Both the position numbers and the translations under genes were made by a program. Below are positions 2,606 through 12,525 of a stretch of 64,000 bases of DNA, piece after piece (position 1 is the stretch's first letter; each line of letters starts with the position of its first letter). Source of the DNA: Octopus sinensis (lineage: Eukaryota). Below the pieces are notes generated by a model, which was not told where the DNA came from, did not search any database, and saw only the letters and a program-made list of their open reading frames with translations. Location: positions 2,046,001 to 2,110,000 of the forward strand of contig NC_043003.1 of NCBI RefSeq assembly GCF_006345805.1. Reading direction: 5' to 3'.

Positions 2606-2811
2606 CATACCAAATCCGTTAGATTCACTTCAACATTTAAATTTAATTTGTCAAAATATTTTCGTCGCTTTCAGACCGCGACCTGTTCGCTGACAAAACA
2701 TCGTGCTGCAGCATGGATTTTTGTCAGTGAATAGGTCGCGGTCTCAAAGCAATGAAAATATTTTGACAAATTAAATTTAAATGTTGAAGTGAATCTAACG
2801 GATTTGGTATG
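2606..2811. repeat. ~206-bp near-perfect palindrome (fold-back element) with a hammerhead-like motif in each arm
   Basis: Arms are reverse complements centred on CTG|CAG (2708/2709). A short tail and a (TA)n run at ~2850 follow. Confidence 0.9.
2720..2770 (+). ncRNA. Variant type I hammerhead-like motif (G3/C8-swapped core); mirror copy on - strand at 2647-2697
   Basis: tttgtca | GTGAAYA | g gtcgc..gcgac | GAAA atat TT | tgacaaa. Each arm carries its own mutations relative to this consensus. Confidence 0.45.
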
Positions 2812-2848: not shown

Positions 2849-2879
<31 letters not shown>

Positions 2880-3319
2880 TTAAGACGATAAGAAATGGAG
2901 CAATAATAACAGAAGTGGATCATTGGTGTTTTAAAGTAATTTAATAAAGACATGACTTTAAAACACTAATGATCCACTTCAGTTATTATTGCTCCATTTC
3001 TTATCGTTTTTTTTTATATATATTAAACCACGGTTTTACCTTTTAAATTACCTACTACCGTATACCTCATAACAAGGACCATACATACTGAGGTAATACC
3101 GGGAGTTCCTATGGATACATCTATCCCTTAGATGGTTACATTACCTCAAACTTATATCTTACAAAATATATATATATACAGATGGAGAGTGAACATACTA
3201 CTATCATGTTCTTAAGAATGAAATCAACCTCTCTGTCTATGTATCTACCCTCTTTGTAATGTTGGTAAATGAAATAGGGATAAAAACGTGCATTATCCAT
3301 TTAATTGGAAAAGTCTATA

Positions 3320-3407
3320 TGTGGCTGAAGATTGCTCGACATTTTAAAACTGATGTAATACTTACAATGTTTAATAAAATGAAGTAGCATGAAACAATTG
3401 TACTACA
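3320..3407 (+). ncRNA. Type I hammerhead ribozyme motif, copy 1
   Basis: Stem I tgtgg/ctaca, core CTGAAGA (3325-3331), long irregular stem II (tgct/agca, catttta/taaaatg, tgtaa/ttaca), GAAA (3391-3394), palindromic stem III CAATTG, GUA triplet. Confidence 0.72.
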
Positions 3408-3437
3408 CTACCTTGGATATCCTTGTTGCTTATTTTG

Positions 3438-3503
<66 letters not shown>

Positions 3504-3943
3504 TTAAGACGATAAGAAATGGAGCAATAATAACAGAAGTGGATCATTGGTGTTTTAAAGTAATTTAATAAAGACATGACTTTAAAACACTAATGATCCA
3601 CTTCAGTTATTATTGCTCCATTTCTTATCGTTTTTTTTTATATATATTAAACCACGGTTTTACCTTTTAAATTACCTACTACCGTATACCTCATAACAAG
3701 GACCATACATACTGAGGTAATACCGGGAGTTCCTATGGATACATCTATCCCTTAGATGGTTACATTACCTCAAACTTATATCTTACAAAATATATATATA
3801 TACAGATGGAGAGTGAACATACTACTATCATGTTCTTAAGAATGAAATCAACCTCTCTGTCTATGTATCTACCCTCTTTGTAATGTTGGTAAATGAAATA
3901 GGGATAAAAACGTGCATTATCCATTTAATTGGAAAAGTCTATA

Positions 3944-4031
3944 TGTGGCTGAAGATTGCTCGACATTTTAAAACTGATGTAATACTTACAATGTTTAATA
4001 AAATGAAGTAGCATGAAACAATTGTACTACA
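3944..4031 (+). ncRNA. Type I hammerhead ribozyme motif, copy 2
   Basis: Identical to 3320-3407, offset by 624 bp. Confidence 0.72.
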
Positions 4032-4063
4032 CTACCTTGGATATCCTTGTTGCTTATTTTGAT

Positions 4064-4126
<63 letters not shown>

Positions 4127-4160
4127 GCTATTTAACTGTTTATCTATATATTAATTTCAG

Positions 4161-4376
4161 ATTGTTAAAGAATACATAATGTCTACTAAGAGTTTGATAT
4201 CAAAGTGCAAGACTGAAGAATGTCAGTTAATCTACCTACGATCTATGGGAAATGCTGGCTTCAAAGAATTCTTACCAATTCTACTTGAAAAGTCACTTCA
4301 AACTAAACCATCAAGCATTTCCAGCACAGCTGTTTATTCTTTGCGGCGTTTCAAGAAAGATGTCATCGCAGCTGAG
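4161..4376 (+). CDS. MTTP: MTTP coding exon
   Basis: tttcag| and |gttaat, 216 nt. IVKEYIMSTKSLISKCKTEECQLIYLRSMGNAG...LRRFKKDVIAAE (YL.xL.NA helical-domain motif). Confidence 0.9.
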
Positions 4377-6123
4377 GTTAATAGTGTTTTGCTAATTTCT
4401 TTCTGAATTTATTGTAATTGTATATTTTAATCAGGTCACTCAAAGACACCTCAAGAGACCCAAGGCAGGCGAGAACCTTCAGCTCTTTAGTTGCTGGTCT
4501 AAGGGAAGGTAACTCCATGCCAATCCTGCATGGTGATACCTACTGGGTTTGAGGTACCTGTTGTACCAGACCCGCACAAATCCGAAGGACAAGAGAATGG
4601 GACTGGCTCTGCACAAACCCTGACCCTTATTATAAACCTTTGCTACCTTGTTGCTATGATGTGTGGCAGATTCCTTGAATATTTTCAGACAAACCCTTGT
4701 GCAATACAGTTCGGGTTAGTTTGAATCTGTTCTGATATTGTGTTCTCATTTTGGAGTGAGGACATCTGATGAATATCAGAAAGAAATCTGATTAAAATGT
4801 AAAAAAAATGGTAATATTGAATGGTGTTTTTAAGGCTGCAAGCTGGTAGAATCGTTAGCACGTCAGGCAAAATGGTAAGAAGCATTTTGTCTGCCTTTAC
4901 TTTCTGAGTTCAAATTCCACTGAGGTTGACTTTGCTTTCCATCCTTTCGGGGTTGATAAAATAAGTACCAGTTGAGCCCTGGGGGATTGACTTAACTGAC
5001 TTACTCCCTCCCTTGAGATTGCTGGCCTTGTGCCAAAATTTGAAATCAATATTAAATATTGTTTCATTTGTATAAAAGAGATTGTCTTACGAATTATCTT
5101 TTGATAACAGAATTTTGCAAACACTCCTGGTGGTGGATGGTCACTTATTTTAATGCTATATTGCAGATTCCATTATTGGATTCAATATTAATGCTTATAT
5201 CACCATCATCATTCCCATCACCGTTCATGCTGGCATGGGTTGGATGGTTTGACAGAATCCAACTAGCCTGAGGGCTGTGTTGGTCCCCTGTGTCTGCTTT
5301 GGCAGGGTTTCTATAGTTGGATGCCCTCCTAACACCACTTTACAGAATATACATGCAAGACAAAATCCCTTCACAGATTGGAGGGGCTGTGTTGAGGGGA
5401 GTGGCTTTGTGCCAGATGAACAGAGGCTATATATTCAAATATATCCACTGGAACCTTCTTTACTGCTAAGACAAGTCTCTCCAATTCAAAATGGTGCTGA
5501 TTATATGAACCTTGTCTGAAAATCTATGGTCAACATTTTTAGCACATTAGTAAATCATTTTATGTTTTTAAACATTTTATGTAAGCCAATCTATGTTTTA
5601 AAATTTGTTCTTTTGCTTTTTTATTGAGGAACAAAAACGAAATTTTTGTTAAATCAAAAATACAATTTAAAAGGTGAAAACTGATCTGGCCCTCACCGGT
5701 TTCAACTCATGATGATGATGATCAATTATAAAGATTAAAAACATTTACATATCAAAGACTCTATACTTGAGATTTCTTCTAATCTAATATCAAGATCACA
5801 ATCTCATTTTATAATATGGACTCTCAAAAAATTACACTGTAATCCCCATGGCAACTTGTTTTCAAAGCCAAACTTTGGTTAGTTATTCAACAAAATTCTT
5901 AAATTTAAGGAAGTTACAATATAGATTAAATTGGTTTTAAATCTTGGCACAAAGCCAAAATCGATTACATGGACCCCAAAAGTCAACTGGTATTTATTTT
6001 ATTGATGTTGAAAGGTTGACCTTAACAGAGTTTGAACTCAGAACATAGTGTTGCAAATGATTCTACCAGCTTCCACCTTATTGTATGAATTTAATTAACG
6101 ATATACTCTGTGTTAATTTGCAG

Positions 6124-8818: not shown

Positions 8819-9819
8819 GTGAGTTTCCTTTTCAACTTTCTCTTTCATTTTCATTCTGATATAATTTTAGAAAAAAAACAATTAGCCATTCTTTGGCTGT
8901 CTGACGTGCAAAATGTTGTTCTGGAGGTCAAGAATTTAATTGTAAGGAACCGTGTGTGTCACTGACAGGACAGTAAGCTGTTAGGTTCCTCACTGGCTGC
9001 GGTTGTGTGCTTGAGAAGTTCGCTTCCCAACCACATGGTTCCTGCTTCAGCCCTACTGTGTGGCACTATGGAAAAGTGTCCTTTGCTATAGCCTCGAGCC
9101 AACCAAAGATTCGTGAGGGAATTTGGTAGACGGAAACTGAAAGAAGCCTGTCATATGTGTGTGTGTGTGTATGTGTGTGTGTGAGTATTTGTGTGTGTCC
9201 CCTGTCACCACTTCACAACTGATGTTGGTGTGTTTATGTCCACTTGACTTAGAAGTTTGCTAAAAAAAAAGGAGACCAATAGAATAAATATCAGACTTTA
9301 AAAAAAGTACTAAGCCTGATTTGTTTGACTAAACCCTTCAAGGTGGTGCCCCATTCCTAATGCCTCCCCCCACTCACCCATCACAGACATAAGCCATTTT
9401 CTGCAGCAAATTCAGAACAACAATTTTTCACAAATAAAACTTCACCTAATTAATCCTTTGTTTTTTTAACATCCATGGCCCCATCTTGGTCACCCCATTA
9501 TTGCCTCAGTTTTTTTCAGCTCCTCTGCTGGACTTTTCCACCACTCCTTGTGGTGGGGTACTGCCCACTTTGGCAACCACTGATCTAAGGCAAATTCATC
9601 AGATCAGTATGTCAGGCAATACGCTTAGCAGCATTTCTTCCAGTTCCTTACATTCTGAGTTCAAATTCTGCCACAGTCACTTTTGCCTTTCATCTTTTCA
9701 GGGTCATCTGTGCAGGGGGCTCGATGTAATCAACTTCGACCCCTCACCTAAAATTCCTGGTCCTAAGACAAAATTTGAAACCATTTTCTAATTTATGTCT
9801 TTATGTTTTTTCATTGCAG

Positions 9820-10011
9820 TTCAGACTATACGCTGATGGTATTGAGAGTTTGGTGTCCGATGAATCCACTTCTGAAGAGGTTGAACCTACAGCCGGAATG
9901 TCTTTGACACTGTTTGATGTTTTATTACGACCAGTTGAATTCTTCCGTGGGTCAGGAGAGTTGATGTCCGCCGCATGGAATGCACCGTCTGAACCAACAT
10001 CAGCTCTGCAG
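9820..10011 (+). CDS. MTTP: MTTP coding exon
   Basis: ttgcag| and cag|gtaata, 192 nt. FRLYADGIESLV...AGMSLTLFDVLLRPVEFFRGSGELMSAAW (MTTP hallmark AGMS..LFDV.LRPV.FF.G). Confidence 0.95.
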
Positions 10012-10291
10012 GTAATATTTCTTTCATCATCATCATCGTCGTATAACATCTGTTTTCCATGCTGGCATGGGTTGGACTGAGGGCTGGTAGACAGAAACTG
10101 GAAGAAGCCTGTCGTATATGTATATATGTTTGCGTATCTGTGTTTGTCCCCCAACATCGCTTGACAACCAATGGTGGTGTGTTTACATCCCCGTAACTTA
10201 GTAGTTCAGCAAAAGAGACCAATAGAATACGTCCTAGGCTTACAAAGAATAAGTTCTGGGGTCGATTTGCTCGAGTAAAGGCAGTGCCTCA

Positions 10292-11467: not shown

Positions 11468-11630
11468 TTGTATTTCCTTGTCTTAATATCACAAGACTGT
11501 TGTAAATGAATAATTCCGCCAAATCACGTCTGGCCATGGAAAAATATTACCTTATCTGGAAACAAGGGTTGGCAACTTGTCAAAAGGGCATATAAAGAAT
11601 ATGCAGTAATGTATAAATGCCTGGAAAGTG

Positions 11631-12525
11631 AACAGTGTTGTGGAGGGAGTAAGTGGACGCTGGGTTTCTCCTCCCAAAATGCATGGTGGTACATTTGTCC
11701 ACAGCCAGCTTGAGTTGCCAGTCCATGATCCACTGCTGCATTGTGTCCAGGTCTGCTTGCAATAGAGATCTATACTGTACAGGATCTGACCTCTTTATTT
11801 CGAGGTACAGCTTGATGTCATCTGCATATTTCAGCACTGTGGCATTCTTAAAGTTGGCATCTATGTCATTAACATATGCAACAAATAAAAGGGGTCCAAG
11901 AACAGATCCCTGTGGTACACCAGATGTCATCTCATAGGGTGAAGAGTGCTGTCCTAGAACTGTGACAACCTCTTTTCGGCCGAAAATAAAGGACTTCAAC
12001 CAGTTATAGAGATCATCTCTTACACCTATTGCAGAGAGTTTCACCATAATTCTTTTGTGTGGCACAGAGTTAAAAGCCTTAGCAAAGTCCAGGTAAATAA
12101 CATCCACCCAGGATCAGTGATTTGGGTAACGTCCTCAAGAAACTCGATGAGTTGATTACAGCAGCTGGAGTTAGGAATAAATCCAAATTGTGACAGCTGG
12201 ATGAGGCTGTGAGACTTCCAGAAGTTCCAGAGGGTTTCCCTGATACAGGATTCCATCAGTTTGGCGATGAAGCTAGTAAGACTAACGGGGCGATAGTTGA
12301 CAGGCGATGTGCAGTCGCCTTTTTTGAACAGAGGATAACACTGGCAGTTTTCCACTGCTCTGGAGTAACACCATTGTCAAGACAGAATTGGAAGAATAGA
12401 GAAAGTTGGCTTAGAAGAAAGTACCCACCGCGTTTGAGAAGTAGGTATGTAACACCATCGAGACCAGGAGAGGCATAGTCGCGTTTGTTCTTAAGGTGGC
12501 GTTGTAGCATTGCTGGTGTAAATTG
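11631..12525 (-). mobile_element. CR1-clade LINE reverse transcriptase fragment (frameshifted)
   Basis: NYRPVSLTS, QFGF, YLDFAKAFNSVPH, GVPQGSVLGPLLF and YADD motifs across three frames. Confidence 0.92.

Follow-up and report, generated by a model that had tools for sequence, protein, structure and literature searches.

Does an intron of the octopus MTTP gene carry a pair of hammerhead ribozymes that could cut a circular RNA out of the host transcript, or was one ribozyme-bearing stretch written twice during assembly? The question goes back to a sequence-only reading of this locus, which described a 624-bp tandem dimer starting at 2881, with two hammerheads on the sense strand of the intron, and likened it to a retrozyme. 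The window analysed here is the whole stretch C7:2046001-2110000 (64,000 nucleotides) of the 2.72-Gb Octopus sinensis genome, and it contains no N. Within it, positions 2849-3467 are identical to 3473-4091 over 619 nt, with a period of 624. The two tandem units are thus present as described, and because the exact run starts at 2849, they begin about 32 nt to the left of 2881, inside the (TA)n tract. The duplication and its surroundings comprise the following features.

2849..3472, + strand: unit 1 of the 624-bp tandem duplication, from exact-repeat comparison; begins within the left (TA)n tract
3473..4096, + strand: unit 2 of the 624-bp tandem duplication, from exact-repeat comparison
3440..3505, no strand: junction (TA)n tract, from sequence comparison
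4064..4126, no strand: right (TA)n tract, from sequence
4161..4376, + strand: MTTP exon downstream of the dimer, open, with acceptor AG at 4159-4160 and donor GT at 4377

The assignment to the sense strand of an MTTP intron held up in protein comparisons. Pfam places MTP_lip_bd at 9730-10077 on the + strand (E 1.6e-12), consecutive positions of the Vitellogenin_N profile weakly match the exons at 4155 (E 0.042) and 6061 (E 0.00029), and human MTTP chains match the host gene with an E-value of 2e-8. A PDB search with a putative further MTTP exon, located before the window starts, returned no match. With the acceptor AG at 4159-4160, the second predicted ribozyme cut at 4026 lies 134 nt before the acceptor, in agreement with the distance of about 135 nt estimated earlier.

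Each unit contains the arrangement CTGAAGA...GAAA-CAATTG-TA that had been read from the letters: CTGAAGA stands at 3325 and 3949, and GAAACAATTGTA ends at 3402 and 4026. The type I core CUGANGA ... GAAA ... UH is present in both copies, with all core bases kept.

3320..3407, + strand: type I hammerhead, copy 1, with core CUGAAGA at 3325-3331, U10.1·U11.1, GAAA at 3391-3394, palindrome ACAAUUGU at 3394-3401 and a predicted cut after A3402
3944..4031, + strand: type I hammerhead, copy 2, with a predicted cut after A4026

Stem I has 5 bp (3320-3324 with 3403-3407), stem II consists of 4 bp over a U·U at 10.1-11.1 followed by a long irregular arm, and stem III is formed by the 8-nt palindrome ACAATTGT. 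The G10.1-C11.1 pair is absent from the window hammerhead, which carries U·U at this place, as do 29 of the 60 fetched motifs. Searching the genome for exact matches to the U·U form (U at 10.1 and 11.1) gave 3,303 hits as against none for the reversed-pattern control, and the G-C form gave 583 as against 2, the two patterns differing in further ways so that 3,303 and 583 do not form a strict ratio. In an alignment of 24 rows hand-picked from 58, the core was invariant in 24/24 rows, which had been chosen on the core. Across these rows 92.2% of cells were paired and 9 of the 13 pairs had changed on both sides (reached in 3/500 shuffles), compared with 27-56% in slid controls; the shuffle figures exaggerate the significance, since the rows are related sequences, one of them with a misaligned stem II. 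The covarying pairs include the palindrome itself, where CAATTG is replaced by CGATCG. The earlier view of a palindromic-stem-III hammerhead, a type for which dimeric action has been reported, is upheld by the 8-nt palindrome and this covariation. Given that an Rfam scan of the 64-kb window at the gathering threshold gave 0 matches, it was pattern counts and covariation that established the motif, and on these sequence criteria we regard the window hammerhead as a genuine ribozyme motif. A chance motif is ruled out by the match counts relative to controls and by the covariation. A relaxed motif scan of the 64 kb found no further motif of this kind besides these two.

The U·U mismatch as such does not mark a dead ribozyme; that general claim was rejected, the form being common across subfamilies here and known elsewhere. 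In the consulted parts of PMC8557442, U·U at the base of stem II appears in 14 of the 26 Hydra rows of File S2 and is the usual Hydra form, and the axolotl hammerhead HHR_Amex2, with U·U at the base of helix II, is described in the consulted part of PMC7229834 as cleaving, and better so as a dimer. Literature searches gave no match for a hammerhead 10.1/11.1 mismatch in Penelope elements, none for exon tethering with ribozyme cleavage in introns and, for octopus Penelope hammerheads, PMC8557442 as the sole relevant match, judged by title. As a separate observation, Hydra-type hammerheads genome-wide have an unusually long loop II, of about 40-60 nt with an internal hairpin, compared to 3-10 nt in the published Hydra table; for the family discussed here, the loop has about 50 nt.

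The ribozyme belongs to the downstream one of two elements that make up each unit.

2882..3166, + strand: element A, copy 1, the truncated tail of a dispersed repeat family with 561 candidates
3506..3790, + strand: element A, copy 2, from exact-repeat comparison
3174..3440, + strand: element B, copy 1, the 5'-truncated 3' tail of a putative Hydra-clade Penelope-like retroelement
3798..4064, + strand: element B, copy 2, from exact-repeat comparison

Longer copies of B reach 5' to variable points and into a GIY-YIG frame. Among 20 loci found by this frame, B lies downstream in the same sense in 13 (2 of which were already in the sample before the frame search) and inverted upstream in 2. At long loci, B lies about 3 kb downstream of the reverse transcriptase frames in five of seven cases, and an inverted 5' copy occurs in two of the seven. 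With 22.9 bits, PF01541 lies above its cut-off of 22.6, and a Pfam scan of the parent element gave no reverse transcriptase match; the reverse transcriptase frames carry LYRDD, read by eye against published alignments. In the frames of L083 and L061/L062, DKT replaces DKG, and a CxCX5C linker is found together with CxxC/CxH around conserved E and N. The longest fetched copies, considered for the N-terminal RWK motif and the absence of CCHH, start near DKT. Family copies are inserted into (TA)n, truncated at the 5' end or accompanied by inverted 5' copies, and have a sense hammerhead near the 3' end. According to the part of PMC8557442 that we drew on, DKT, CxCX5C, CxxC/CxH, (TA)n targeting and 3' hammerheads define the Hydra clade. 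The hammerhead is therefore almost certainly the 3'-end ribozyme of a Hydra-clade Penelope-like element (PLE), the clade being assigned by motifs. The linker motif rules out the Neptune and Poseidon clades.

Comparison with the described Hydra-clade PLEs (Hydra-1_Obim and Penelope-n_HM; Craig et al. 2021, PMC8557442, as far as consulted) revealed a shared C-terminal GIY-YIG, DKT, CxCX5C, CxxC and CxH around E and N, as well as targeting of (TA)n, a hammerhead in sense orientation close to the 3' end and a stem II with U·U at its base. The octopus element, at least 3.4 kb long with an Asn-rich linker and a 3' tail of about 1 kb, represents a different family from the other octopus one, Hydra-1_Obim, whose hammerhead differs. 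A search of the supplement text of PMC8557442, in which line breaks could hide a match, did not turn up the motifs CTGAAGATTGCTC and GAAACAATTG. The locus thus adds one Hydra-clade family, not found in that supplement text as searched, with a known ribozyme form. With the minimal, dimeric PLE hammerheads (Cervera and de la Pena 2014, PMC4209133, consulted in part), it shares a short stem I (4-5 bp) and a palindromic helix III, as well as the occurrence of mostly single dispersed motifs from truncated PLEs and of opposite-strand pairs 100-700 bp apart; it differs in having no G10.1-C11.1, no extra base after A9 and an 8-nt palindrome as stem III. By analogy, our hammerhead may work like a PLE dimeric hammerhead. 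By its title, Lunse et al. 2017 belongs with the literature on these minimal, dimeric forms.

We then asked what the 624-bp unit is as a whole. Its order is (TA)n, element A, a short TA run, element B and (TA)n. When 3020-3440 was used as the query, only the two window copies matched in full among the best 40 of 3,415 candidates, the rest covering the last ~270 bases; in a search with the A-B join, 2 of the 40 scored matches were full length, both in the window. Element A was found at none of 28 other B loci, and element B at none of 18 other A loci. Element B is 92% identical in the median, and at most 94.6%, to 54 other fetched copies. We infer that A and B were two separate insertions into one microsatellite. 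Because all private changes of B are common to both units, the doubling would, from the sequence, postdate insertion and decay. Insertion of a PLE as a partial tandem (pseudo-LTR) was ruled out as the origin of the dimer, as the unit holds two families and the private changes are common to both units. The 5' part of element A folds back on itself (arms 2882-2940 and 2952-3010), and family copies stop at the same place, ahead of (TA)n. A relaxed scan detected no hammerhead in the element A piece. As an observation on its own, the element A family (window 2882-3166 and L033-L054) resembles a PLE tail in that its 3' end is fixed, ahead of (TA)n, and its 5' part is often inverted.

These results bear on the likeness to a retrozyme. 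As assembled, the locus has two consecutive head-to-tail units with a type I hammerhead in each, which agrees with the operational definition of at least two such units (bioRxiv 10.64898/2026.07.22.740005, as far as consulted) and could point to membership in a mobile family of non-LTR retrozymes, with a dimer inserted from circular RNA. Metazoan non-LTR retrozymes, axolotl HHR_Amex2 among them (Cervera and de la Pena 2020, PMC7229834), have the same head-to-tail layout and, at the foot of helix II, the same U·U; dimer-enhanced cleavage is a further common trait, which for our unit is a prediction. In that account, however, retrozymes are multi-locus families with one unit of 150-450 bp and abundant circles, whereas our unit is a single-locus composite of 624 bp, known from DNA alone. 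It was found at this locus only, among the best 40 candidates scored per search, and it consists of two unrelated elements that had decayed before the doubling. Retrozyme-family membership is thereby largely refuted, we regard dimeric insertion from a circle as very improbable, and the unit is not a member of the non-LTR retrozymes. What had been taken for a retrozyme-like element proved to be a one-locus composite of two unrelated repeat tails, its ribozyme derived from a Penelope-like element with thousands of copies.

A composite could nevertheless have become active by being doubled. The two copies would then pair through the 8-bp palindrome and cut at 3402 and 4026, and a host ligase would circularise the 624-nt RNA, yielding a newborn retrozyme in the MTTP pre-mRNA. 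The cut at 3402 is needed for such a circle. Equilibrium folding predictions for 3315-4036 gave a minimum-energy structure with an inter-copy 8-bp stem III (P 0.82) and one whole hammerhead, the full double hammerhead costing +2.1 kcal/mol. In four wider folding windows, however, stem III fell to P 0.015-0.12 and stem I to at most 0.003, and the cut-competent fold at 3402 had P of at most 0.014 in all five. The double hammerhead was thus predicted in the tightest of the five folding windows only, and appears as a possible, not a robust, fold. Retention of all core bases and of a 5-bp stem I, together with the axolotl precedent, speaks for activity. On the other side, metazoan PLE hammerheads had little cleavage activity in vitro, in dimeric form too (PMC4209133, as far as consulted), and the anole PLE hammerhead needed the element's protein, with no RNA-seq ends seen at its cut site (PMC11167929, likewise in part). 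Taken together with the depth data presented below, in which no doubling appears, we consider an active double ribozyme improbable.

This leaves the question of whether the doubling exists in the animal. The units differ nowhere outside the TA tract, and each is at least 5% from every other fetched copy; the original caveat, that perfect identity also fits an assembly artefact, applies. In 511 kb of partly overlapping, repeat-rich loci, we found 5 further tandem pairs whose units are at least 97% identical and whose ends are microsatellites or AT-rich. Substitutions outside simple repeats numbered 0 in three of them (with 1-nt indels in two), 1 in one and 8 in one. Three more same-strand hammerhead pairs are local duplications, with microsatellite junctions in two of the three: one pair is identical outside repeats, one differs within repeats, at the positions printed, and one has 21 gaps. 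Near-perfect tandem duplications recur at L008, L010, L029, L095, L118 and L119; most end in microsatellites, their units differ in simple repeats or by 1-nt indels, and they are possibly a systematic feature of this assembly. Tandems of 85-93% identity without microsatellite junctions are present in the genome as well, and several of these, together with the 8-substitution pair at L090, suggest that real tandem duplications exist. L090:1171-2323 (C1 near 46.62 Mb) is a head-to-tail pair of 563-bp units, bounded by (TA)n and with a canonical G-C hammerhead in each, and is the best candidate seen for a real tandem. A further head-to-tail pair, L117:433-1078, has units of about 311-316 bp, again (TA)n-bounded with a hammerhead in each.

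Read depth was assessed on public contigs matched at 100%, from animals that may differ from the assembled one, and summed depth gives no copy number; matching at 95% was swamped by family copies. In run X1, a 91-nt B-specific piece, with 6 differences to the best of 59 other matches, had a depth of 40.9 compared to 34.3 in the flank (one contig, 76% of X1 covered). In run X2, a 59-nt A piece had a depth of 28.2 compared to 42.6-58.9 (one contig, possibly from another A copy), and run X4 gave no unit-specific piece. Stretches of the unit that lacked exact cover in X2 and X4 do not enter the comparison, and the compared stretches lie outside the junction tract, which none of the listed contigs spans. 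The unit-specific contigs of X1 and X2 thus lie at single-copy depth with no doubling seen, a weak hint towards one copy. The junction tract 3440-3505 is a hybrid, its 5' part resembling the right tract with its single-A interruption and its 3' part the left tract, with 16 TA units ahead of the interruption compared to 14 in the right tract; such a hybrid fits unequal crossing-over as well as a mis-join.

Weighing these data, we lean towards an artefact, and rate a real recent copy as somewhat less likely. The account as a whole that we favour, by a modest degree of belief, is a truncated Hydra-clade PLE ribozyme in a (TA)n tract, with the 624-bp doubling as an assembly error. Elements A and B would have inserted separately into one (TA)n microsatellite of the MTTP intron and both decayed before the doubling arose, the assembly having written the stretch between two (TA)n tracts twice. 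The animal would then carry one weak, dimer-dependent ribozyme without an identical neighbour at the locus, and for this reason no 624-nt circle would be expected. A second account, to which we give a lower but substantial chance, is that slippage or unequal crossing-over between (TA)n tracts copied A and B once, in a real, recent and private event. Such a doubling would be neutral, because a weak ribozyme rarely folds or cuts before splicing, and the dimer stem I pairing probabilities reported above are in keeping with this. The hybrid junction and the L090 pair, with 8 substitutions outside repeats, are compatible with it, and a polymorphic event would equally give single-copy depth in other animals. 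Counting against it, duplications of this type turn up often in the assembly, and in most of them the units are told apart by nothing but simple repeats or 1-nt indels, as two renderings of one DNA would be.

The element kind and the ribozyme form are already known, and the striking feature, the doubling, is probably not biological. Retrozyme screens that combine tandem repeats with hammerheads would count microsatellite-bounded duplicates in this assembly. Targeting of (TA)n by Hydra elements places their hammerhead tails between microsatellites. In a model that we consider improbable, slippage between (TA)n tracts would make head-to-tail dimers that switch on a dimer-only ribozyme, and the MTTP locus, with L090 and L117, would represent a retrozyme at birth, cutting a 624-nt circle from the pre-mRNA. 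Were the doubling both real and active, it would show concretely how Penelope tails could turn into retrozymes, and would let one see in nature whether intronic double hammerheads cut a host pre-mRNA.

Other elements were noted in and around the window. Window positions 2606-2811 hold a fold-back repeat of a very high-copy family with a minimal-hammerhead-like motif, both window arms being decayed. In this motif, the core pair is swapped to G3-C8, an extra base follows A9, G10.1-C11.1 is present and stem III is palindromic. The G3-C8 motif has 3,172 exact genome matches compared with 0 for controls, with a varying loop and a stem fixed by the search pattern. In the consulted portions of the literature, U3-A8 is noted in Schistosoma hammerheads (PMC4209133), and C3G/G8C gives partial rescue (PMC11167929). 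A naturally occurring G3-C8 family this large may be worth a separate study. Outside the window, 736 bp before its start, L059:5258-5352 (C7:2045265, + strand) is a hammerhead of the same superfamily, with the CAATTG palindrome and G10.1·U11.1. On the sense strand of MTTP, it precedes the dimer by about 4 kb and is a possible dimer partner for the MTTP hammerhead even if the doubling is artefactual. Finally, a 177-aa frame at 11580-12113 on the - strand, in a later MTTP intron, reads like what we take to be a fragment of a LINE reverse transcriptase.
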